Notes under the pieces: model-generated
What the model saw: only the letters and a program-made list of their open reading frames with translations
The model's database searches: none
What the model was told of the DNA's origin: nothing
Program-made: the position numbers and the translations under genes
Source: a virus
Lineage: Duplodnaviria; Caudoviricetes
DNA: 64,000 nucleotides
Virus record (IMG/VR): IMGVR_UViG_3300037418_002116
Direction: 5' to 3' (one strand)
Shown here: piece after piece, positions 1,277 through 61,119 of the stretch
How positions within the stretch are numbered: position 1 is the stretch's first letter
Layout of the letters: every line of letters begins with the position of its first letter

Positions 1277-1832
1277 CGTCTTTAGTCTCTTTCTTTTCGT
1301 TTCTTTCCTTGATTTGATGCATCACATATACGAAATCATCGTAAGTGTCAAGGTAAGTGTCAAGGTAAAAATCGAAGTTTTCTTCTGAACTTAGAAGGTC
1401 TGGTTCCTCCATAGATTCGGCCATAGATTCAAGTACAGACCTTGGAATGGTTTTACCCGGTCTGGAATCGAGTCGCTGCTTCCATAGATTCCAATTTGTC
1501 GGCGTCGGAAGCGTCCAAACCATTTTTGTGTAGTCATCCGGTATCTTGGAAAGCTTCCTCTGGCGTGACTTGACCGTGAGATTGGTTTGATCCCAAATGA
1601 TATTTCGGCCTTCCTTGATCGCTTCGGCTAGGCGCTCTTGAAGGTTCTGTTCAGCCGCCTTGATCGTGCCTTTGAATACGGCATCATAGGTTGACTCCCA
1701 CATCTTTGCGACCGCTTCAATGTAATTGTCGGTCGAGAGAACAACAAACTCATTGTTCTGATTGATTTTTTTGATAATTGTTGACTTTCCCGATGCAGGA
1801 ACACCAACCATCATTATGAAAATTTTACTCAT
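1269..1832 (-). CDS. P-loop kinase, polynucleotide 5'-kinase-like (AAA_33)
   Basis: GVPASGKST Walker A, LSTD, IIWDQTN, R-x3-R lid (QRLDSR). Confidence 0.85.
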   Translation of the reverse strand: MSKIFIMMVGVPASGKSTIIKKINQNNEFVVLSTDNYIEAVAKMWESTYDAVFKGTIKAAEQNLQERLAEAIKEGRNIIWDQTNLTVKSRQRKLSKIPDDYTKMVWTLPTPTNWNLWKQRLDSRPGKTIPRSVLESMAESMEEPDLLSSEENFDFYLDTYLDTYDDFVYVMHQIKERNEKKETKDVD

Positions 1833-3517: not shown

Positions 3518-3856
3518 GGGCAGGAAGGCAGAATCGTACTTGCAATCCATTCGCCATTTGTTTCCATTCGCCACATTCAAGCCGTGGCGACGATGTGAAA
3601 TAAACAAAGCCGAATGTTGCCACGATGACCGTGACAGTCAATAAGAAAACTTTCAGATTGTCGCTCATTCTTCCCACTTAATTGAATTCCATTCTTCAAC
3701 ACGTGCCTTGATCCGGACAGTCATCTTGTACCATCCATGGATAGTGTTCCTATCCAATGCCCTTATTTCGGCCATAGAGCCGATTCTGGGGTACTTTCCC
3801 CAATAGGCGTGGATATGAACCGCACCTTGTGTTCAAAAAGGCGCTTAGAATGCTTT

Positions 3857-4270
3857 TTAGCACGATTCATGGTCGAATCTCCAAAACTCACGACCATTCT
3901 TCATTTCGGCAAGCAATTTTCGAACTTGGGCGGCATGAGCCTCAAACTCTTCATCCGAAAGCGGGCGAAAATATTGTTCCAACCGAACAATTTTGTAATC
4001 ATGCGGATATTTCTTAGCCCATTCCCATTCGGTCGATGCCTCCAATTCCTCTTTGGTGGCAAAGCGCTTGAATTCGATCGGATAGGTAGCCGAATATGAC
4101 CCATGAGGGTATTTGGAATCAGCGGAAAGCCAGCGAGGATAACCGCCTAACATTCCACCTTCGTCTTTTTGTTCGATAGTCCAGAATTCTTTCAAATTTT
4201 CTTTCCTGTCCCATTGCAGGAAGAGCATTTCGGGCTTCCTGTGGTGTCGTAACGTCCGGAACCGTTGCAA
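3857..4270 (-). CDS. Hypothetical protein (start uncertain)
   Basis: ORF in minus-strand array. Confidence 0.55.
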   Translation of the reverse strand: MQRFRTLRHHRKPEMLFLQWDRKENLKEFWTIEQKDEGGMLGGYPRWLSADSKYPHGSYSATYPIEFKRFATKEELEASTEWEWAKKYPHDYKIVRLEQYFRPLSDEEFEAHAAQVRKLLAEMKNGREFWRFDHESC

Positions 4271-11503: not shown

Positions 11504-12643
11504 TCAAATCATGTGTTTAGCTTTGAAGGTTTCCCATTTCAGCTTTTGTGTAGAGTTTTTCTCGATACGCTTCAAGATTGCCGTTCTAGCAGGCTGTTCA
11601 GCGAATTGAGCGAATAGAATCGGAACATCGTCCGGCTCAAATTCCTTCGCAAATTCTAGTGCAAACTTCTTACGATCACCCGAAGATTTTTGGTACACAT
11701 CGTTATAGATTGCATGATATTTCGATTCTTGGCGATTTACAGACGCCCAGAATTCTTGTTCAAATTCAATTACCCTATTAAGGTCTTCTTCTATCAGTAA
11801 TGATTTCAAGTCATCGATCTTTTCTTGAAGGATGGCTTGAACAATGTTGTATTCAGCGGAATTAACAAGTTCTTTCGAATTATGCATTAGGCAATATTCG
11901 GAAGTTTTGAATTTCAGCATGTGCCCGTTGTCGAAACGAAGCACATAACCTTCAATACCTTGTTGGTCCTGAACACTCGCAATAAATTGGGCGAGTTCCT
12001 TTTGACTATTATATGTTGCTACAGTGGGAATATCCCAATGACCGGCTAACTCTTTCATCTCTTCCGGATGAAAATATTCACCAGTATCATTATATCTTAT
12101 AGCAGTTAATATCAAATTGTCAATAGGATAATCTATAACTATCCTATTTTTACGGGAAGTCCACTCAAATATTGGTGTAATTTCTTCCTCATCACAGTAT
12201 TCTGCAAACTTGTTGTACTTCTTATTGGCATATGCAAAATACTCTGCATTATTTCCAACATCCGTGATACCCATCTTTGTTCCCCAACGGAAGCCGTTGT
12301 GCAGACGGAGTGGCGTGATCATGGAACCGTCAAGCTTTTCGAACACCGTGTGGGGTTGCGATAGGTCGATAAGGTTCGCTTGCGTCTCTGGACGTTCGTT
12401 GATGTTGAAAAATTTATGGAAACGACGGGACAATAATTTTCCGTCCGGAGCAAAGACAATGCCTCGGCACTCACGACGGAGAGCATCATTCAGAGTCGTG
12501 ACGGGCGGAAACGAATCCGGCATGTGGACCACATAGTTGATAACAATGTAATCCTCTTTGTCACAAACAATGAATTCGTCCCGGCCTTTGATAGCCGGGA
12601 GAACATCATCAATCGTGCTTATTTTTGGAAATTCGTAAAACAT
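11504..12643 (-). CDS. rnlA: RNA ligase 1 (T4 RnlA/gp63 family)
   Basis: ECRG, RRFHKFFN, EKLDGS (motif I), EGYVLRF (IV), LKFK (V). Confidence 0.92.
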   Translation of the reverse strand: MFYEFPKISTIDDVLPAIKGRDEFIVCDKEDYIVINYVVHMPDSFPPVTTLNDALRRECRGIVFAPDGKLLSRRFHKFFNINERPETQANLIDLSQPHTVFEKLDGSMITPLRLHNGFRWGTKMGITDVGNNAEYFAYANKKYNKFAEYCDEEEITPIFEWTSRKNRIVIDYPIDNLILTAIRYNDTGEYFHPEEMKELAGHWDIPTVATYNSQKELAQFIASVQDQQGIEGYVLRFDNGHMLKFKTSEYCLMHNSKELVNSAEYNIVQAILQEKIDDLKSLLIEEDLNRVIEFEQEFWASVNRQESKYHAIYNDVYQKSSGDRKKFALEFAKEFEPDDVPILFAQFAEQPARTAILKRIEKNSTQKLKWETFKAKHMI

Positions 12644-29130: not shown

Positions 29131-29319
29131 CTATGTCCAGTCTTCTTTTAGTTTCTTCAATTCTCTTTCCAACTCTGCAATACGTTCCAATTTTTTATTG
29201 CGTAAGTAGTCTTCCGCTTCCGTTCTTGTTTCGAAGAGCATCTTTGGAATGTCGCATGTTGAAAACATATCGACGTAATCTCCATCGATGACGAAGTATG
29301 TTGGGGAAAGTCTTATCAT
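29131..29319 (-). CDS. Hypothetical protein
   Basis: ATGA overlap; C-terminal coiled coil. Confidence 0.6.
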   Translation of the reverse strand: MIRLSPTYFVIDGDYVDMFSTCDIPKMLFETRTEAEDYLRNKKLERIAELERELKKLKEDWT

Positions 29320-29933
29320 TTATGCCCTACAGACTTTTCGATAGCCGTATGGAAGGGATTCCTGCCGATGATATCCCAATGATCTTCATTGGCTTGCCGC
29401 CATGATCTATGCTTGGCATTGACACTCATGCCATCGGTAATGCCACGGCCCATAGCGTGAATGCACATTTCAGGCGAGATACCACCAACACCGGTCCCCA
29501 TTCCAGAGAAACAGATTGATTCGATGGCATGTGTACTGTGCGACTTACGGGCCGCTGCACGTGTCGCCAGATAGATATTGGAGGCATCCGGCAATCGCAT
29601 TGGAACACGCATGGTTGGAGCTACAATGAGATAGGGGATTGTCTTGTGAGTCGATGAAACAATCAAAGCGTCACCGACAAGCAATTCGTTGAATTCCGTA
29701 TAGAACGAAATCTGTTCCTGCACGATGTTTTGGATGTTCGGCATGTTTTCGGCAAAGTGGTAATCGATACCACCATCCATGAAGCCAAAGCTATTAGCCG
29801 GGCTGACAACAGCGTCAACCGGCGTATCCAAAGGCGAACCAAGCCCTACATTGACTCCAGTCCTAAGAAAATCTTCATTGGTTGCGGCTCTATCGACAAG
29901 CGCTATGTTACGATCACGGAAATAGATTTTCAT
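29316..29933 (-). CDS. Macrodomain ADP-ribose hydrolase
   Basis: DAVVSPANSFGFMDGGID, YLIVAPTMRVP, GMGTGVGG. Confidence 0.92.
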   Translation of the reverse strand: MKIYFRDRNIALVDRAATNEDFLRTGVNVGLGSPLDTPVDAVVSPANSFGFMDGGIDYHFAENMPNIQNIVQEQISFYTEFNELLVGDALIVSSTHKTIPYLIVAPTMRVPMRLPDASNIYLATRAAARKSHSTHAIESICFSGMGTGVGGISPEMCIHAMGRGITDGMSVNAKHRSWRQANEDHWDIIGRNPFHTAIEKSVGHK

Positions 29934-31564: not shown

Positions 31565-31866
31565 TCCTTGTCTGGCGGCTCTTTATTGCCCCATATGATG
31601 TAGTTAGGATAACTACCAACCATATATCTTACTATAATGTTTTTAAGAACTGGATCGATGTTTCCTAGAGAATCTTCCAATTTTTTGCGAGACTCGAGAT
31701 AGCTTTGTTCTTTAGCTTCGCAATTTTTGAAACAATCATCACAAATGACGACTGGATCATCCAAGCCATCCCCGAATTTTATGAGGGATTCAGCCATCGC
31801 TTCTTCGTCAGACCGTTCTTTTTCAAAAGTCCCGAGACACTGTGCACAGGTGAATGTATTGCTCAT
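31561..31866 (-). CDS. Small zinc-binding protein
   Basis: CAQC...ICDDC. Confidence 0.55.
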   Translation of the reverse strand: MSNTFTCAQCLGTFEKERSDEEAMAESLIKFGDGLDDPVVICDDCFKNCEAKEQSYLESRKKLEDSLGNIDPVLKNIIVRYMVGSYPNYIIWGNKEPPDKD

Positions 31867-32888
31867 GAGCCAGTCATTTCGTTGGTTTCGTCGGCTGTTC
31901 CGTGGAACCAATGCTTAGCTGTCTGAACATGGTCTTTCCGGACATACTTCCCGACATGATTACGAAAATCTCGCCATGTGAAATTCCCTCTGTTTCGAAG
32001 AACAAATCCCTCGGAACTTCCGTAGTCGGAATTGGCTGCGATTTTTCGGATGATTTTTTCGTCATAGATTCCTTCATACAGGACGGGAACCGACTGAATT
32101 CCCAAAAGCTGAAACCATTCCATCGTGTCGTCCCAAGACAGGCATTCCAGACCATTCCAGATGGAAAAGCCAAGGAAGAAGGATGGCAGATTTTTGTAGG
32201 CTATCGAGTGCTTGGCGAACAGATTCTCACCGCAAATGCGCCAGTCTTCCGGCAGATCATACGCAAAATTCTGTGCGAAATTTTTTGCCCAATCCCGTGA
32301 CCAGTGATTGCGGCCATCGATGGAGCGGGCGTGAAGATAGCCATCCGAATAGATCGTGGTGTTTTCGCCATCCATCTTTTCCGTCACAACCACTTGATTT
32401 CCCTCGAAAATTTGCATCGAAGAAATCATGCGGTCGTCATCGTTCATGCCGGGCGAGAATGGCAGATGGTAGGTTCTCGGATATTTCATGCGATTGGTGA
32501 AAAGATCGAGAACGCCGCCTTCCTTCAAAATTTTCTGAACGGATTCGTCGTTAAATAATTCACCACGGACTCTTTGCCCGTTTTCCAGAACGATGTTGCC
32601 CCATTTGTCATAGATCACGTCGGAATAGAAATGTTCCGGCAGAACCGGCTTGGTGATTCCGGCACAGACTCGAATCGCCTCTACAGAGATAAGAGTCTTC
32701 TCACAATCCTTGTGATGTTCAGTGCAAACGGAAGCACCATTATCAAGATAATAACCACCATCAGCGAAAAGCCTTCGCTCCAATATATGGTGAGCATCTT
32801 TAGCAGGATTGCCACACACAACACATTTATGATGATCCCGAGCAAAAACGCCTTCACGAAAATCATCCCTTGATAAGAGCTTGGACAT
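31863..32888 (-). CDS. HNH domain fused to Rnl2-like RNA ligase
   Basis: N-terminal CVVC..DAHHI..CTEHH; C-terminal KYPRTYHLP, TEKMDGEN, EGFVLR, KYVR. Confidence 0.88.
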   Translation of the reverse strand: MSKLLSRDDFREGVFARDHHKCVVCGNPAKDAHHILERRLFADGGYYLDNGASVCTEHHKDCEKTLISVEAIRVCAGITKPVLPEHFYSDVIYDKWGNIVLENGQRVRGELFNDESVQKILKEGGVLDLFTNRMKYPRTYHLPFSPGMNDDDRMISSMQIFEGNQVVVTEKMDGENTTIYSDGYLHARSIDGRNHWSRDWAKNFAQNFAYDLPEDWRICGENLFAKHSIAYKNLPSFFLGFSIWNGLECLSWDDTMEWFQLLGIQSVPVLYEGIYDEKIIRKIAANSDYGSSEGFVLRNRGNFTWRDFRNHVGKYVRKDHVQTAKHWFHGTADETNEMTGS

Positions 32889-37368: not shown

Positions 37369-37566
37369 TGTTGATTCCTTGTAGTCTTTTGAGTTTAGAT
37401 AGCGCTGATAGTAGGTTTCCATCAGGCTTTGTTCGTTCGGTTTGATAATTGAAGAAGCGGTTTTCTTTATTTTTGGAAGTTTCCAACCGGCTTTGGTCTG
37501 CAAAATAATTGCAGCGAGTAAGAAAAACAAAATCGGAGTGAATGCTACCAGTACTAATACTTCCAA
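37216..37566 (-). CDS. Membrane-anchored hypothetical protein
   Basis: N-terminal TM; GGAGG RBS inside a hairpin. Confidence 0.5.
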   Translation of the reverse strand: MEVLVLVAFTPILFFLLAAIILQTKAGWKLPKIKKTASSIIKPNEQSLMETYYQRYLNSKDYKESTCHPKPSESIGQKSLNVSRKPKKMKPRWISVGTKSRSIKTRLKNSRNGKSE

Positions 37567-37570
37567 TAAA

Positions 37571-37610
37571 AAAGCCTCCGGAACTTCTTTATTTAGTTCC
37601 TAGAGGCTTT
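37571..37610 (-). promoter_or_regulatory. Terminator/late-promoter hairpin sequestering an RBS
   Basis: AAAGCCTC..GGAACT / AGTTCC..GAGGCTTT; CTAAATA at the stem-loop junction; GGAGG in 3' arm; U-run follows. Confidence 0.65.
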
Positions 37611-37613
37611 GAT

Positions 37614-37688
37614 TGGAGCGGGAAACGGGATTCGAACCCGTACTTTTACCATGGCAAGGTAATGTGCTACCGTTAACACCATACACGC
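37614..37688 (-). tRNA. tRNA-Gly(GCC) with mismatched acceptor stem
   Basis: TTACC-TTGCCAT-GGTAA; two acceptor mismatches; CCA. Confidence 0.8.
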
Positions 37689-37695
37689 ATTAGTT

Positions 37696-37771
37696 TGGAG
37701 CGGGTAGCCGGACATCGAACCGGTCATCTTCTGCTTGGAAGGCAGTGGCTCTACCTTTGAGCTATACCCGC
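37696..37771 (-). tRNA. tRNA-Gly(TCC)
   Basis: Loop CTTCCAA; GCGGGTA/TACCCGC; CCA; T-loop has an extra base. Confidence 0.88.
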
Positions 37772-37801
37772 AATCTACAAAACTATTTATACAAACTTTA
37801 T

Positions 37802-37953
37802 AAGAAACTGGCTGTTTTGGAGCAAACTGTTTTTCCGGGCACTTTCCCGTCCCGGCAGTCTCACATTTAACCCCTTTCTCATACTCACCGAAGTAGCCAC
37901 GTGGGTCTAGTTCGTCGGCACTCTACCGTAAAGGAGTGGGGCACCAATTTCTT
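37802..37953 (-). ncRNA. Unrecognised structured ncRNA, copy 1 (152 nt)
   Basis: Shares core blocks with 60861-60975; terminal stem AAGAAATTGG/CCAGTTTCTT; C(UUCG)G tetraloop; own promoter. Confidence 0.8.
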
Positions 37954-37959
37954 ATTCTC

Positions 37960-37988
37960 TATATAGTCGATAGTTCAGAGAAAGTCAA
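37960..37988 (-). promoter_or_regulatory. Promoter of ncRNA copy 1
   Basis: CTTGAC-N17-CTATAT; predicted start coincides with the RNA 5' stem. Confidence 0.85.
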
Positions 37989-38122
37989 GACCTAAATGCT
38001 TGTCATGCGACCTTCGGTCAAACGACAGTATTCAACAGCTTCCTCGAAATCATCGAAATCGGTGTGGTGAATGTTGCCGTCCTCAAAGAAAATGACACGA
38101 AACATGATTCATTCCCCTTTGT

Positions 38123-38162
38123 TTCCTATTTCCATAATAGGAATTTTTCAGGGAAGGTCAAG
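38123..38162 (-). promoter_or_regulatory. Early promoter with -10 in an 8-bp inverted repeat
   Basis: CTTGAC-N17-TATTAT; TTCCTATT/AATAGGAA. Confidence 0.75.
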
Positions 38163-38705: not shown

Positions 38706-38891
38706 TTACCGCTTCTTCTGCCTGAATTCTTCGGCTTCTTCACGGGTATCGAAAACGGCAATAACTTGCCACTTCAAATCCGTTTCCTTGCCTTCGGTTA
38801 CTGTTGTCAGATTCCACACATTAAAGCGGCCATCGTGACGGGGTGCAACATCGGACGGTAGATTGTCCGTAAACCAATTATTTGTTGTCAT
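38706..38891 (-). CDS. Hypothetical protein
   Basis: ATGA overlap. Confidence 0.65.
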   Translation of the reverse strand: MTTNNWFTDNLPSDVAPRHDGRFNVWNLTTVTEGKETDLKWQVIAVFDTREEAEEFRQKKR

Positions 38892-40078
38892 TGATATTCT
38901 GTAGTCTCGCCTTTACGGTTTAGATAATCATCGGATACGTATTTCAAAATGATACGACCTAATTCGTCATCATAGCATTCTTCTGCGGGAATTGCAACCA
39001 CTCCCTCACGAATATTCGAAAGAAACATGGATTTTCCATCAACATATTGAGCGATATCAGCTTCATTGTTCACGATATCCAAAAGAGGAACAGTTGGAAT
39101 TCCAATAGCATTCAAAAGATCATATTTTTCAATGGCATCGATGTAACGATCACCGATTTTGATATCAAAGCCACGGAATTCTGGCTTCTCCAATCCATAA
39201 TGCAAATCCTGAATACCCTTGCCGAAAATTTCGCCAAGAATGAATATTTTTTGGTCGCTTGCATTCAATTCCCAAACCAATCGGGTTAGTTTGGTGAAAA
39301 GAGAATTTGCTATAACTGTTTGAACGTAAATGTTGTTTTTATTTGCCAAATTGTTTTTGAAAACCAGTCCCTTGCTACCAAGGCCCTTTGAGAACACAAC
39401 AAATGAACCTTTGACAGCATTGAACAATTCATCATGCTGATATTGCGGAAGCCAGCCGATGCCACAAAATGTGCCGTGCAGCTTTTCCGTGAGATAAATT
39501 TTCTTGCCCGTTAGGTCCAGCTTGCCGGGATGTTTTTTGGCATTCTCGATATCGTACTGAACCGTGTTGTGGTTACCGATGTACAGAAGATCGCCAGACA
39601 TGGAAGCTGGCAACTCGGGTTCATATTTCGTTATTCCGAGAATTTCGGAAACATCACGGCCTAATGGTGACGGAGCGTCAACAGCGTCCAAATACAGAAC
39701 AACTTTCCCATCGCTGGTTTCAATCCAGCCTTCATCGACATGCAAACTGTTCGCTTGTTTGACGGGGAACAAGATGCCTTCCGACGTGATGCCACGCAAC
39801 TTGATTGGCTTTACCCGGTTTCCGAGCTTGCCGGACAAGTAGCCAATGCCCTTCTCTTCATTCCAAAATCCCATTCGCAACAGGTTTTCAGGGACAACAG
39901 AATCAGCCTGAACATAGACAACCCAATCGAATGGTTTGTAACGATGTGAGCCGTCATCAAGCTTTGCCGAAACAATCTTGTAGTCGTAGCCTTTGAGTTT
40001 GATGATACTTAGACGGTCTGCATTTGGATGGTCTGTTACGGCTTCAACAGCCATAATCTTAGTTTCAAATTTACTCAT
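38888..40078 (-). CDS. RNA ligase, DRB0094/Rnl5 type with N-terminal OB domain
   Basis: HPNADRL, LRGITSEG, TEKLHGT, GEIFGKGIQ, REGVV, LKYVSDDYL. Confidence 0.92.
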   Translation of the reverse strand: MSKFETKIMAVEAVTDHPNADRLSIIKLKGYDYKIVSAKLDDGSHRYKPFDWVVYVQADSVVPENLLRMGFWNEEKGIGYLSGKLGNRVKPIKLRGITSEGILFPVKQANSLHVDEGWIETSDGKVVLYLDAVDAPSPLGRDVSEILGITKYEPELPASMSGDLLYIGNHNTVQYDIENAKKHPGKLDLTGKKIYLTEKLHGTFCGIGWLPQYQHDELFNAVKGSFVVFSKGLGSKGLVFKNNLANKNNIYVQTVIANSLFTKLTRLVWELNASDQKIFILGEIFGKGIQDLHYGLEKPEFRGFDIKIGDRYIDAIEKYDLLNAIGIPTVPLLDIVNNEADIAQYVDGKSMFLSNIREGVVAIPAEECYDDELGRIILKYVSDDYLNRKGETTEYQ

Positions 40079-40870: not shown

Positions 40871-41929
40871 TTAGTATTTAGGTTTTGGAATCATTCCCTC
40901 GATAATGTGTTCCGCTTCGGCCTGCCGAATGTGATACTGTGAGGACATGATTTGCTCAAAATCCTTGCCCCATTCTTTCAACTTGTCACAAATTTTGTAG
41001 AAAAACTGGTATCGTTCGGAATCGCCATGCATCACCCGGAAACCATCCTGAAACCATGGAACAGAAGGCGCAAGCACAATGTATTTGTCGATCTTCTGAT
41101 TCTTGGCGAATTCATAGAATTCCGAATTGTCTTCTCCCTTAAACCAGATATCCGCATACATGGCGGTAATCAGCCCTTCGGTATCCGAGACGATGATTGG
41201 AAAATTTGCGTTTTCCTTCGTCTGGTCGATGAGAAATTGCTGAGTCCGCTGAATAATGCGGAAGTCTTCCCGGTCCAAAATATTCTTGCGATTCACGGAC
41301 AGGATTCGCCCGTATTCCGGCAACGTGTCATACTTTGCCGCCAGCTTGGAAATCATGGTGGATTTACCACAAGATTCCGGCCCGACAATCGCCACGGTCT
41401 TGACCAAATCGTGTTTGGTGTACTCGGGCAGCGTCTTGAACATGTTATAGAAGTCAGTGCGAACCTTAGTTCCTGAAATCGCCTTCATTTCACGGTCGGG
41501 ATCGACGGGAACCCACTTTGCGTCAAATTCCTTGGCGATGCGATCACCGTAAAGATCGGATGTGAAAACATGCGTGATCTTGTTACCGAACCGGAATGGC
41601 TTCGGAATGTCATTGATGATTTCCCGAGTGGAGGCAAGCCAAGCCTGCCAATAGGACTCGTCGGTAATTGTGCCGTCTTCATCCTTTTCGGCGTTCTTGT
41701 CCAATTCCGGTTGCGGATAGATTAGAACATCGCAAGAATCACTGACATTGTTCAACGCTTCACGAACCCAACTTTTCCGCTGTTCGAATGAGAACGGATC
41801 ATCCGGGGTTGTGCCGATAAGCACCAAAAGCTTGGAACAGTTGATGGCGGCGGTTCTAAGCAGAAGTTCATGCCCCTTATGCAGGGGCAGAAACTTTCCG
41901 AGTGTCAGTCCGATATTTTCAACGGCCAT
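40871..41929 (-). CDS. nadR: NadR-like NMN adenylyltransferase / nicotinamide riboside kinase
   Basis: GKFLPLHKGH, ISGTKVR, GPESCGKST, EYGR, SDTE; start at MAVENIG. Confidence 0.9.
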   Translation of the reverse strand: MAVENIGLTLGKFLPLHKGHELLLRTAAINCSKLLVLIGTTPDDPFSFEQRKSWVREALNNVSDSCDVLIYPQPELDKNAEKDEDGTITDESYWQAWLASTREIINDIPKPFRFGNKITHVFTSDLYGDRIAKEFDAKWVPVDPDREMKAISGTKVRTDFYNMFKTLPEYTKHDLVKTVAIVGPESCGKSTMISKLAAKYDTLPEYGRILSVNRKNILDREDFRIIQRTQQFLIDQTKENANFPIIVSDTEGLITAMYADIWFKGEDNSEFYEFAKNQKIDKYIVLAPSVPWFQDGFRVMHGDSERYQFFYKICDKLKEWGKDFEQIMSSQYHIRQAEAEHIIEGMIPKPKY

Positions 41930-42635
41930 AATGCACCGGCTGTAAAAGTTTTTTGTGGTCTGCATACCAGAGATACAGTCCGGCGAAAGCGTTCCCGAGG
42001 AACAGAAGGTATTGAGCGGCGACAAGGAAGGCACCGGTCGTGTAATAGACGTAAATGGACAGGCAGTTCACCGCAATCCAGAACGCCCATGATTCAGGCT
42101 TCTTCAAGTTCAAAAGGTACTGTGCGACGACCGAAAGAACCAAAATTCCAACGTCAAGATGTGCCGATGAAGCATCGAAGTACATGTTTACTTGGGCGAT
42201 CAAAACCCATGCCAATGCGCCCATTGCGAGAATCAGCATCCAATCTTTGATACCCATCACGGAAACTTCAAGTTCCGTCTTGTTCTCGCCACCATATTTC
42301 CAGTTATACCAACCGGCAAACTGGATAGGGAAGAAATATGCAAGCTGTAGTGTCATTGACGCATAGAGCTTGATATCGAAGAACAGAATCCCGAGAAAGA
42401 CCACGGCAATGATACCAATTGGCCAACATGCCATTTTCTGTCGAATCGTGAGATATACACACGAATAATTGGTCAGAACACCAAGGATTTCGACCTGTGA
42501 CGATAGGGTTGGATTGCTTGGGTCAGGAAGAAAGTTTCCGAACCCGGTTGTCCAACCGTAATGTAGACCGATGGCGTATGTAATGGCGGTCAGAATGATA
42601 CCGACTGCCAATCCCTCAAAAGTATCACGAATCAT
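41919..42635 (-). CDS. pnuC: PnuC nicotinamide riboside transporter
   Basis: Multi-TM; WPIGII, QFAGWYNW, ESWAFWIAVN; overlaps the nadR start. Confidence 0.92.
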   Translation of the reverse strand: MIRDTFEGLAVGIILTAITYAIGLHYGWTTGFGNFLPDPSNPTLSSQVEILGVLTNYSCVYLTIRQKMACWPIGIIAVVFLGILFFDIKLYASMTLQLAYFFPIQFAGWYNWKYGGENKTELEVSVMGIKDWMLILAMGALAWVLIAQVNMYFDASSAHLDVGILVLSVVAQYLLNLKKPESWAFWIAVNCLSIYVYYTTGAFLVAAQYLLFLGNAFAGLYLWYADHKKLLQPVHYGR

Positions 42636-43113
42636 CACCAAAAATTTCCTTTTGCAGACTGTTATCGCCTTTTGTGAAATCCCAATCATTCAAAAGATTG
42701 AGTTTGAAAGTTTGAAGATCGGATATCATCGATCTTTGCTTCTCAACTTCCAAAAGTAACCACTTCATTTGATCGATGAAATCATGACGAATAGGAAATG
42801 TCTTTTCCTGTCCATAATTTCCTTTTCCGGATTCTTCCGAAGTTCTTACATTTACCCGGAATTCGAAGCCAATACCCGGCGACATCGTAACCATGTCTTT
42901 CAACATGGAAATGTAGCCTTCAATCTGCTTGGTTTTGCCATCGATAATTCGATTGATGACTTTAAACGCTTGGCTTTTGATGATTTCACTATTTTCCATG
43001 ATCAAACTCCATATTTTCTTCAATATAATCATGGAGTTAGAGAAAGTCAAGGCTTTTTGATCTTTTTCTTTTGATATGCCCGAGATTGAATTTCTCTTTG
43101 GTTCGCTCTCCAT
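42625..43113 (-). CDS. Hypothetical protein (start probably internal)
   Basis: ORF in array. Confidence 0.55.
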   Translation of the reverse strand: MESEPKRNSISGISKEKDQKALTFSNSMIILKKIWSLIMENSEIIKSQAFKVINRIIDGKTKQIEGYISMLKDMVTMSPGIGFEFRVNVRTSEESGKGNYGQEKTFPIRHDFIDQMKWLLLEVEKQRSMISDLQTFKLNLLNDWDFTKGDNSLQKEIFGDDS

Positions 43114-49103: not shown

Positions 49104-50216
49104 TTACAAGTTTATGATGCTATCCAGCCATGCCGAACGGCGACGTTTCAGTTCCTTGCCTAAATCCGGGCCGGGAACATAACCTTCCGCCATCAGATGT
49201 TCGGCAGTGATTGGCCACACAAACGCCGAATCACGCTCAAAGAAGGCATTCAGATTTTGCCAGTTCTTTGCCTGTTTCCAACGAACAAGGTCCGTAACAC
49301 AAAGCTTATGATAGTCGCTTTTCTGACATTCTGAAATGATTTGGAAATTTGTTGTTCTGTCATGGTTCAGCATGAAATAGATTCTGACAAAATCCAGTTC
49401 CGCCGATGCAGCATGAAACCGGTTCTTCATGATATCGAGAACCCGTTCATCGTGATTGTACAGAGCAATGAGTTTCAGAAGCCACAGATATTCATGATTG
49501 AAATCTTTGACTTGCGGATAAAAGCCGGGATCGATATCCAGAACCGGGCCAATGGTGTTGACCATCAGCCGCACAATCGTGAAGGCTTTGTCTTGGCTTA
49601 GAATTTTTTGCAGTTCAGCCCATATGCGTTCGCCCGAAATATTTTTCAGACCGAAGGCGAGCTTCCGGATGATTTCCAGATTTTCGGTCGTGGTATCGTC
49701 CCAAACGACCGTCTTCATGCGCCCGAGGAAGCGGAAATACCGCATGATTCGAAGATAATCTTCCTCGATACGGGCCTGTGCATCACCGACAAAGCGGACG
49801 ACGCAATTCTTTAGGTCCGACTCGCCGCCAAAATAGTCATAGATTTTTCCGTCCTTATCCATGAACATGGCATTGAACGTGAAATCCCGCCGTGCAGCGT
49901 CAAGCTTCCAATCTTCAACGAATTCGACTTCCGCATGACGACCGTCCGTTGCCTTGTCGATCCGGAGCGTTGTAACCTCAAAGGCATCCTTGCCTATTAC
50001 AACGGTCACAGTGCCATGCTGTAGGCCCGTGGGCACTACGGTGTATCCAAGTGCCTCGAAAGCCATGATCACGTCCACGGGCTTCCCCGTGGTCGCTATA
50101 TCGATATCTTTTGGGTCTTTGCCTAGCAGATAATCACGGACAGCGCCGCCAGCGATTCGGGCTTCAAAACCCGCATTTTCAAGGATTGTTATCGCTTGGT
50201 GGGCTTGTTGGAGCAT
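49104..50216 (-). CDS. cca: CCA-adding tRNA nucleotidyltransferase (class II)
   Basis: GGAVRD...KDIDIAT, GLQHGTVTV, EVTTLR, DAARRDFTFNAM, EDYLRIMR, SGERIWAEL. Confidence 0.9.
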   Translation of the reverse strand: MLQQAHQAITILENAGFEARIAGGAVRDYLLGKDPKDIDIATTGKPVDVIMAFEALGYTVVPTGLQHGTVTVVIGKDAFEVTTLRIDKATDGRHAEVEFVEDWKLDAARRDFTFNAMFMDKDGKIYDYFGGESDLKNCVVRFVGDAQARIEEDYLRIMRYFRFLGRMKTVVWDDTTTENLEIIRKLAFGLKNISGERIWAELQKILSQDKAFTIVRLMVNTIGPVLDIDPGFYPQVKDFNHEYLWLLKLIALYNHDERVLDIMKNRFHAASAELDFVRIYFMLNHDRTTNFQIISECQKSDYHKLCVTDLVRWKQAKNWQNLNAFFERDSAFVWPITAEHLMAEGYVPGPDLGKELKRRRSAWLDSIINL

Positions 50217-60657: not shown

Positions 60658-60733
60658 TGGTAAGCCCGGTGGGGTTCGAACCCACGACCTTTCGCTTAAG
60701 AGGCGCTTGCTCTTCCAATTGAGCTACGGGCTT
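60658..60733 (-). tRNA. tRNA-Lys(CTT)
   Basis: Loop CTCTTAA; weak anticodon stem; ACCA. Confidence 0.85.
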
Positions 60734-60759
60734 ACAGTGTTTCTATTTAGCATAAAAAA

Positions 60760-60849
60760 TGGAGGACCGGGTGGGGTTCGAACCCACGTGAGGCTTGCGG
60801 CCTAACCGATTAAAAGTCGGTCCCCTTCGGCCAACTTGGATACCGGTCC
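60760..60849 (-). tRNA. tRNA-Lys(TTT) with long variable arm
   Basis: ACCGA-CTTTTAA-TCGGT; AGGC/GCCT extra arm; TCCA end. Confidence 0.8.
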
Positions 60850-60860
60850 AAACAGAGAGC

Positions 60861-60975
60861 GAGGAATTCGGCTGTTTTGGGACCATAACGGGTACGTCCA
60901 CATTTAACCCCTTTCTCATACTCACCAAAGTAGCCACGTGGGTCTACCGTAAAGGAGCGGGGCACCAAATTCCTC
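60861..60975 (-). ncRNA. Unrecognised structured ncRNA, copy 2 (115 nt)
   Basis: Paralogue of 37802-37953; terminal stem GAGGAATT/AATTCCTC; own promoter. Confidence 0.8.
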
Positions 60976-60993
60976 TTACCGAGGCACAATACT

Positions 60994-61022
60994 TATATAG
61001 AGTATATGTTCTAGAATGTCAA
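60994..61022 (-). promoter_or_regulatory. Promoter of ncRNA copy 2
   Basis: CTTGAC-N17-CTATAT. Confidence 0.85.
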
Positions 61023-61042: not shown

Positions 61043-61119
61043 TGGTGAGTCCTCCGGGGCTCGAACCCGGAACCCCCAACTTAAAAGGCTGGTGCTCTAA
61101 CCAATTGAGCTAAGGACTC
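61043..61119 (-). tRNA. tRNA-Lys(TTT)
   Basis: CCAGC-CTTTTAA-GTTGG; canonical; ACCA. Confidence 0.93.

Follow-up and report, generated by a model that had tools for sequence, protein, structure and literature searches.

The window, by which we mean the whole 64,000-nt stretch of viral DNA analyzed here, is the early region of a large phage, and the public sequencing runs that matched this phage came from soil and rhizosphere metagenomes. It carries 14 tRNA genes (ARAGORN; Rfam tRNA) and also encodes three RNA ligases, a CCA-adding enzyme, an NMNAT-like gene and a macro-domain gene, making the early region a dense RNA-repair and NAD toolkit. One of the ligases is Rnl1-like and the other two belong to PF09414, the N-terminus of one of these two weakly matching HNH endonucleases (PHROGs). 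Within this setting two minus-strand copies of a small structured element were found, each placed behind promoter-like boxes and ahead of a pair of tRNA genes (Table 1). Public DNA runs on the copy locus contained the same strain only, with no strain variants, while among the public runs mapped to the locus RNA coverage of the element was nil and metatranscriptome contigs covered the tRNA part only.

Table 1. Coordinates of the RNA copies, their flanking signals and related features (window positions unless another record is named).
Feature	Position	Strand	Remarks
RNA copy 1, long form, 152 nt	37802..37953	-	189 bits with model R2
Copy 1, P1	37953-37943 with 37812-37802	-	
Copy 1, long arm P2-P5	37942-37870	-	side hairpin P4a at 37928-37916
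Copy 1, variable arm P6	37865-37818	-	
16 nt of copy 1 without counterpart in copy 2	37910..37925	-	most of P4a plus the 5' strand of P5a (CGAA)
Copy 1, promoter-like boxes	37960..37988	-	TTGACT 37988-37983, 17-nt spacer, TATATA 37965-37960
Extra 37-aa ORF and duplicated early promoter	37992-38105, 38134-38161	-	between the upstream gene and copy 1
TATAAATA	37784..37791	-	in the 30-nt spacer from RNA copy 1 to tRNA-Gly(UCC)
tRNA-Gly(UCC) 37696-37771 and tRNA-Gly(GCC) 37614-37688	37614..37771	-	co-oriented, directly downstream of copy 1; ARAGORN, Rfam tRNA
Terminator-like hairpin	37565..37608	-	12-13 bp stem, then UUUUUAUU; read from the sequence
RNA copy 2, short form, 115 nt	60861..60975	-	143 bits with model R1, 76 bits with R2
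Copy 2, P1	60975-60964 with 60872-60861	-	short P6 at 60902-60878; no P4a; core as in copy 1
Copy 2, extra 5' nucleotides	60976-60988	-	~12 nt, GUGCCUCGGUAA
Copy 2, promoter-like boxes	60994..61022	-	TTGACA 61022-61017, 17-nt spacer, TATATA 60999-60994
tRNA with anticodon UUU, 60760-60849 (90 nt), and tRNA-Lys(CUU) 60658-60733	60658..60849	-	11 nt downstream of copy 2
Further tRNA-Lys(UUU)	61043-61119		upstream of the copy 2 cassette
RNA-repair and NAD genes (ligases, CCA-adding, macro-domain, NMNAT-like)	11504-12643, 31863-32888, 38888-40078, 49104-50216, 29316-29933, 40871-42034	-	
Class II-shaped Lys-anticodon tRNA, G001	42823-42909		
Circularly permuted tRNA-like RNA, L140	~1375-1460	-	
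Circularly permuted tRNA-like RNA, L236	~3880-3975	+	
Circularly permuted tRNA-like RNA, L245	~3620-3700	+	

Covariance models made from either copy found just two copies within the 64-kb window. The near-identical blocks that the original prediction had seen in both copies were confirmed: the copies share two long blocks and one short 3' block, and the 28-mer GGTGAGTATGAGAAAGGGGTTAAATGTG occurs twice exactly in the window (0 of 100 shuffles). Both fold with their 5' and 3' ends paired (z = -1.9 for copy 1 and -2.5 for copy 2), and folding agreed with the proposal that the terminal stems differ in sequence and yet both pair (AAGAAAUU.../...AGUUUCUU and GAGGAAUU.../...AAUUCCUC). The predicted promoter pattern CTTGAC-N17-CTATAT, equivalent to TTGACN-N17-TATATA, is indeed present upstream of both copies; it would place the start of copy 1 ~7 nt past the -10 box, at the first base of the terminal helix (P1), and that of copy 2 ~12 nt ahead of P1. 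Likewise, the predicted tRNA pairs do follow the copies, Gly(UCC) with Gly(GCC) after copy 1 and tRNA(UUU) with tRNA-Lys(CUU) after copy 2. The terminator-like hairpin beyond the Gly pair, which the scanner did not list (loop >8 nt), would close the RNA-tRNA-tRNA unit of copy 1.

Several features around the copies are observations in their own right. In the window, the stretch from the upstream gene to RNA copy 1 contains a 37-aa ORF that the related phages L238 and G001 lack, and the early promoter is present there in duplicate; of the two promoters, the ancestral one (TTGACC-N16-TATTAT) would now drive the ORF, and the second RNA copy 1. PHROG and Pfam searches with small ORFs flanking the RNA yielded nothing informative. 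In the additional 5' nucleotides of copy 2, CCUC can pair with the GAGG that opens P1, possibly forming a hairpin that competes with P1. The first tRNA behind copy 2 combines a class II shape (its variable arm is long) with the anticodon loop CUUUUAA (UUU, Lys) and with U73-CCA. It is uncommon to find a Lys anticodon on a class II body; this tRNA is conserved in G001, and its candidate roles are those of a decoder, a mistranslator or a nuclease decoy.

The family comprises six copies in five related T4-like soil jumbo phages: copies 1 and 2 of the window, and one each in G001 (L140), L236, L237 and L238. A degenerate 18-mer from the 5' block matched a single IMG/VR record, G001, which is a complete 196-kb phage collinear with the window (protein identity ~45-85%; tblastn with window ORFs) and holds a complete homologue behind the same boxes. 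Protein searches with the flanking genes led to three further carriers, namely L236 (a 261-kb JGI contig), L237 (ENA) and L238 (JGI). Among 80 IMG/VR relatives fetched via the conserved RNA ligase and scanned with models R2 and R3, no copy was found apart from that of G001; 70 of them, more distant, were without the RNA, including 17 near-complete ones (G001 excluded). The contigs of four relatives with 58-63% ligase identity (ligase and Thg1 cassette surroundings) held no copy either, and one member of the clade itself is without the RNA at both known loci. Thus the RNA family is narrow, and it is accessory because the 70 distant relatives and this clade member do without a copy.

Searches by sequence gave little beyond this clade. 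Exact-pattern scans of IMG/VR for pieces of the core recovered one true relative, L139, and otherwise matches that were due to chance or to coding sequence (those at L006 and L107 are situated within genes); scans of this kind gave one chance 22-mer in JGI metagenomes (L141) and two coding chance hits in GTDB genomes (L142, L143). When the element and its flanking DNA were compared by BLAST with 50,697 phage records, only tRNA matches or noise resulted, and the core sequence had no match in the literature searched. At gathering thresholds Rfam 15 recognized only tRNAs in the window, and even at E<=10 nothing in it overlapped copy 1 or copy 2 (the G001 copy matched nothing at E<=1), so that the Rfam comparison proposed as a check came out on the side of a new family.

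In the model-guided alignment A10 of the six sequences (MAFFT misaligned the 3' part of the short copy), the fold was a three-way junction in which P1 (11-12 bp, made by the two RNA ends) is stacked on a long arm (P2-P5), with a variable arm (P6, 25 to ~48 nt in length) branching off. The long arm is built of P2 (GCCCC/GGGGU), a 1x3 loop, P3 (CUC/GAG), another 1x3 loop, P4 (UUYA/UGAG) and P5 (CGAA/UUCG, UAG/CUA and CC/GG, capped by YAYGU), and bears an optional side hairpin, P4a. RNAalifold independently gave the same three-way-junction architecture. Covariation, also proposed as a check, was present once relatives were added: 10 pairs showed compensatory change at the three-sequence stage, and with six sequences 16 of the 52 pairs were altered on both sides, while 96.5% of cells were paired. 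As high a value was reached by 0 of 500 shuffles, a test which overstates significance because the six sequences, from one narrow clade, are related to each other; controls slid by 1-3 columns gave 1-3 such pairs. Thus the central claim, of an undescribed structured RNA family with a promoter for each copy and variable peripheral stems, stands: there is no Rfam match, and covariation is present.

The covarying pairs are located in P1, P4a, the base of P5 and all of P6. In particular, P4a reads CGGUA/UGCCG, CGCCG/CGGCG or CGGC/GCCG, and P5a changes from CGAA/UUCG to CGGA/UCCG; P2, P3 and P4 are invariant save for one U-G to C-G change in P4. The pairing shown for P2-P4 is therefore modeled purely from energy and compatibility, since these helices never covary. 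Because they are nearly invariant, the CUCCUUU/AAAGGGG helix first proposed for this region also fits the data, in a register that is indistinguishable from GCCCC/GGGGU plus CUC/GAG plus UUYA/UGAG, which energy alone favors. As for the two insertion sites of the earlier view, the 16-nt difference and the long versus short variable stems are real, but the 16 nt are kept in five of the six members, and so copy 2 is a deletion form that has lost P4a. Two further details did not survive the comparison. The supposed C(UUCG)G tetraloop of copy 1 turned out to be the 3' strand of helix P5a (CGAA/UUCG), which reads UUUG in copy 2 and UCCG, facing CGGA, in G001. The palindrome CCACGUGG is not conserved as such, being CCUACGUGG in L237 and L238 and CCAUGUGG in G001 and L236, and with this alteration in relatives the kissing dimer derived from it was not supported as stated. 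Each of the two changes replaces a C that faces G by U, so that G-U pairs would still permit a loop-loop dimer, or a pseudoknot joining the P5 loop (YAYGU) to the invariant AUGUG beside P6, two substitutions being the whole of this record. As a DNA site the palindrome was rejected, CACGTG being CATGTG or TACGTG in relatives.

Conservation of the element is concentrated in its interior. A core of ~70 nt is near-invariant (pairwise identity 87-96%; 69 of 164 columns invariant), whereas the neighboring RNA ligase is only 59-78% identical between these phages, and for the adjacent tRNA-Gly(UCC) the identity of the window to L237 and L238 is 74-83%. The core is thus conserved at least as well as the neighboring tRNAs. 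(The window tRNA-Gly(UCC) is identical to that of the distant G001 at 73 of 76 positions, and so differs more from those of L237 and L238, which are closer relatives, hinting at exchange of tRNA genes within the clade.) The boxes TTGAC(T/A) and TATATA are conserved in all six copies, with P1 beginning ~7 nt past the -10 box in five. This conservation argues for early promoter activity, and the argument has to be made in this way because the consensus scanner omits both window sites, whose -10 hexamer has A at position 6.

This pattern of change bears on whether the element acts as RNA at all. A mobile DNA cassette, either MITE-like or a duplicated promoter module, would account for its varying loci among phages, its duplication in the window and its inverted-repeat ends, but a MITE was rejected because the ends vary while the interior does not: the terminal stems are the most variable part, the inverted ends differing and the interior being kept, which is the opposite of a MITE, and the substitutions compensate for each other so as to preserve RNA pairing on one strand. 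Nor was a small protein gene retained as a candidate; one core frame (...DELDPRGYFGEYEKGVKC...) is open in three of the six copies and was called by the gene caller in L237, but it is without a start codon in copy 1 and L238, contains stops in G001, is shifted by the 16-nt and 1-nt indels, and has changed mostly by non-synonymous substitution. We therefore regard a cassette or short peptide gene with no RNA function of its own as highly improbable.

The six copies occupy three kinds of locus, and downstream of each, within ~10-30 nt, is a tRNA or (after a short hairpin) a tRNA mimic. i) At the tRNA-Gly locus the RNA lies between the early promoter and tRNA-Gly in the window, L237 and L238, while G001, L240, L241 and L242 have the tRNA-Gly without the RNA. 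ii) At the Lys locus the RNA precedes the Lys-anticodon tRNA pair in the window; G001, without the RNA, has the same three tRNAs adjacent, with 7 nt where the window holds a 193-nt cassette. iii) At the tRNA-mimic locus of G001 and L236 the RNA is flanked by a gp46-like SMC ATPase gene and a 302/315-aa ORF; a hairpin and a circularly permuted tRNA-like RNA come after it, at the head of a cassette that includes a Thg1-like enzyme. In L245 the mimic stands behind a promoter of its own and the RNA is absent, and the equivalent gap in the window genome is only 187 nt, too short for RNA plus mimic. Because loci occupied in some phages are empty in relatives, what moves is the promoter together with the RNA, and it lands in leaders of stable-RNA genes.

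The permuted tRNA-like RNA consists of the variable loop, the T arm, a closed acceptor hairpin, U8, the D arm and a short closing stem. The cassette which it heads encodes a 302-332-aa ORF, a Thg1-like guanylyltransferase, a deoxyribosyltransferase-like protein and a peptide deformylase. Rfam did not recognize it (L140 copy).

In the window, L237 and L238 the order is promoter, RNA, tRNA, tRNA, which suggests co-transcription. The RNA might be a cis-acting leader that acts on its own transcript or polymerase (antitermination or Rho protection of the HK022 put type), or that serves as a cap-like 5' stabilizer and processing guide for the precursor. This is an unlikely reading that nevertheless deserves serious weight: the RNA sits directly behind the promoter and starts at ~+1; the two copies per genome, each behind its own promoter, may recall putL and putR by analogy; in G001 and L236 the RNA heads a unit that continues into protein genes (the 302/315-aa ORF and the Thg1-like gene); and a strong terminator-like hairpin stands after the tRNA-Gly pair. 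Against it, close relatives carry the same downstream units without the RNA, and the pre-tRNA units are short (~350 nt) and fully structured, so that there is little need for antitermination; the near-invariant 70-nt core also exceeds what a stabilizing 5' stem needs. Moreover a late-promoter motif would bypass the RNA. The motif, TATAAATA, the T4 late-promoter consensus, is kept upstream of tRNA-Gly(UCC) in L237, L238 and also G001, where the RNA is absent, and its conservation suggests additional late synthesis of this tRNA that does not rely on the early promoter. Thus nothing downstream appears to need the RNA in cis, because relatives without it keep the units and TATAAATA would let tRNA-Gly be made without it.

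A function of the RNA's own, exerted in trans, is suggested by these same two points, namely that the downstream units work without the RNA in relatives and that the late promoter would bypass it. The reading that we tentatively prefer, while holding it at somewhat less than an even chance, is an autonomous, early-expressed, trans-acting small stable RNA whose 3' end comes from processing of the downstream tRNA or tRNA-like RNA. The element would be the gene of a small structured non-coding RNA of ~145-152 nt (115 nt in the deletion form), transcribed early by the host RNA polymerase from its own sigma-70-type promoter, with the start predicted at or next to the first base of P1, so locking the 5' end in P1. 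The 3' end would probably arise by an RNase P cut at the 5' end of the downstream tRNA, followed by trimming back to P1. The stable product may then work in trans, with a protein or RNP partner recognizing specific bases in it, as is suggested by ~70 core nucleotides remaining near-invariant while the peripheral helices covary freely. Indeed, the depth of core conservation points to protein or RNP recognition rather than simple antisense pairing. The partner would most plausibly be a tRNA/RNA-repair or host-takeover function of the early region.

A more specific version makes the RNA the nucleic-acid component of a so far undescribed phage system against tRNA damage or tRNA-targeting host defence. 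As decoy, inhibitor or cofactor it would bind either a factor of the host (an anticodon nuclease, or one of RNA quality control) or a repair enzyme encoded by the phage, such as the RNA ligases, the CCA-adding enzyme or the Thg1-like enzyme. We put this forward as speculation that is rather more likely to be wrong than the general reading. If it is true, the near-invariant 70-nt core would constitute a new RNA fold, one that serves either to recognize a protein specifically or to catalyze a reaction.

The shape of the molecule raises another reading, that of a new class of catalytic or ligand-sensing RNA: a self-cleaving ribozyme releasing the tRNA or tRNA-like RNA with ends that a ligase can use, or an aptamer coupling a metabolite or tRNA signal to processing. 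A P1 that closes the junction, an invariant core with variable peripheral stems, the position at the 5' end of the unit and a region rich in RNA ligases, a CCA-adding enzyme and an NMNAT-like gene would all suit such an RNA, but the window copies matched no ribozyme or riboswitch in Rfam 15 at E<=10, a conserved cleavage-site motif was not recognized, and the 11-30 nt from P1 to the tRNA hold no hairpin and thus no expression platform. We consider this reading distinctly improbable. Among the known classes, a riboswitch was rejected on that spacer, which also has no terminator-like site, and hammerhead, twister, HDV-like, hatchet and pistol ribozymes on the Rfam result at E<=10.

Small stable RNAs that accompany phage tRNAs were first met as RNAC and RNAD of T4, and to our knowledge no RNA of this kind has a known function. 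The present family is a clean new example of a small stable RNA tied to phage tRNAs, with a compact, covariation-supported fold, and its cassette moves between stable-RNA loci in phages that are unusually rich in tRNA, tRNA-mimic and RNA-repair genes. Should the RNA bind a repair enzyme, or a host factor of defence or quality control, it would join these odd RNAs into one pathway and would offer structural and pull-down studies a short and tractable molecule; should it be only a leader, it would still exemplify a design that phages use repeatedly for transcription units of stable RNAs.

Four known systems invite comparison. The first is the pair of putL and putR elements of HK022, which are two-hairpin elements of ~70 nt that act on the long early operons of a lambdoid phage. 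As with these, there are two copies per genome, each right behind an early promoter, and the folded RNA begins near +1. On the other hand, the present RNA is a 115-152-nt three-way junction ahead of short stable-RNA units (the two being compared by description), and relatives of the present phages run the same downstream units without it. The second concerns the way in which the 3' end would be made. In the MALAT1-mascRNA type, the 3' end comes from an RNase P cut of a downstream tRNA-like structure, and 3'ETS-leuZ is an sRNA from the spacer of a tRNA operon; the known cases are from eukaryotes or host chromosomal operons. Here too a non-tRNA RNA lies upstream of a tRNA or tRNA-like structure, a likeness in working and not in family, with processing of the phage RNA presumed.

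The third is the Y RNAs of bacteria and phages (YrlA/YrlB, bound by Ro60/Rsr), which are 80-130 nt long with a long terminal stem and internal loops, have a tRNA-like RNA as their genomic neighbor and RNA-repair genes close by, and carry the Ro-binding motif GNCGAAN0-1G near the 5' end (PMC4201824). The RNA of G001 and L236 resembles them in being directly followed by a YrlA-like permuted tRNA mimic. Membership in the Y RNAs was rejected, GNCGAAN0-1G not being conserved (GACGAAC in copy 1, GACGGAC in G001, and copy 2 without the segment); a search for TROVE/Ro60 (PF05731) detected nothing in G001 (complete, 196 kb) but did match control genomes, and Rfam gave no Y-RNA hit on the two window copies or the G001 copy.

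The fourth, and the one drawn from T4 itself, is RNAC (species 1, 139 nt) and RNAD (species 2, 119 nt), which after decades are still of unknown function (PMC3014915, PMC9697503). Of the four, it is these two that the present RNA most resembles in its way of working. Homology was rejected: with filters off, model R3 gave only noise on the T4 tRNA region, the best overlap with rnaC being a 26-nt hairpin at 3.5 bits. The likeness is one of arrangement, each being a small non-coding RNA in a unit with the tRNA genes of a T4-type phage and presumably released by the tRNA-processing enzymes. While RNAC and RNAD count as late RNAs and stand at the 3' end of their tRNA cluster, the present RNA stands at the 5' end of its unit, behind an early-type promoter.
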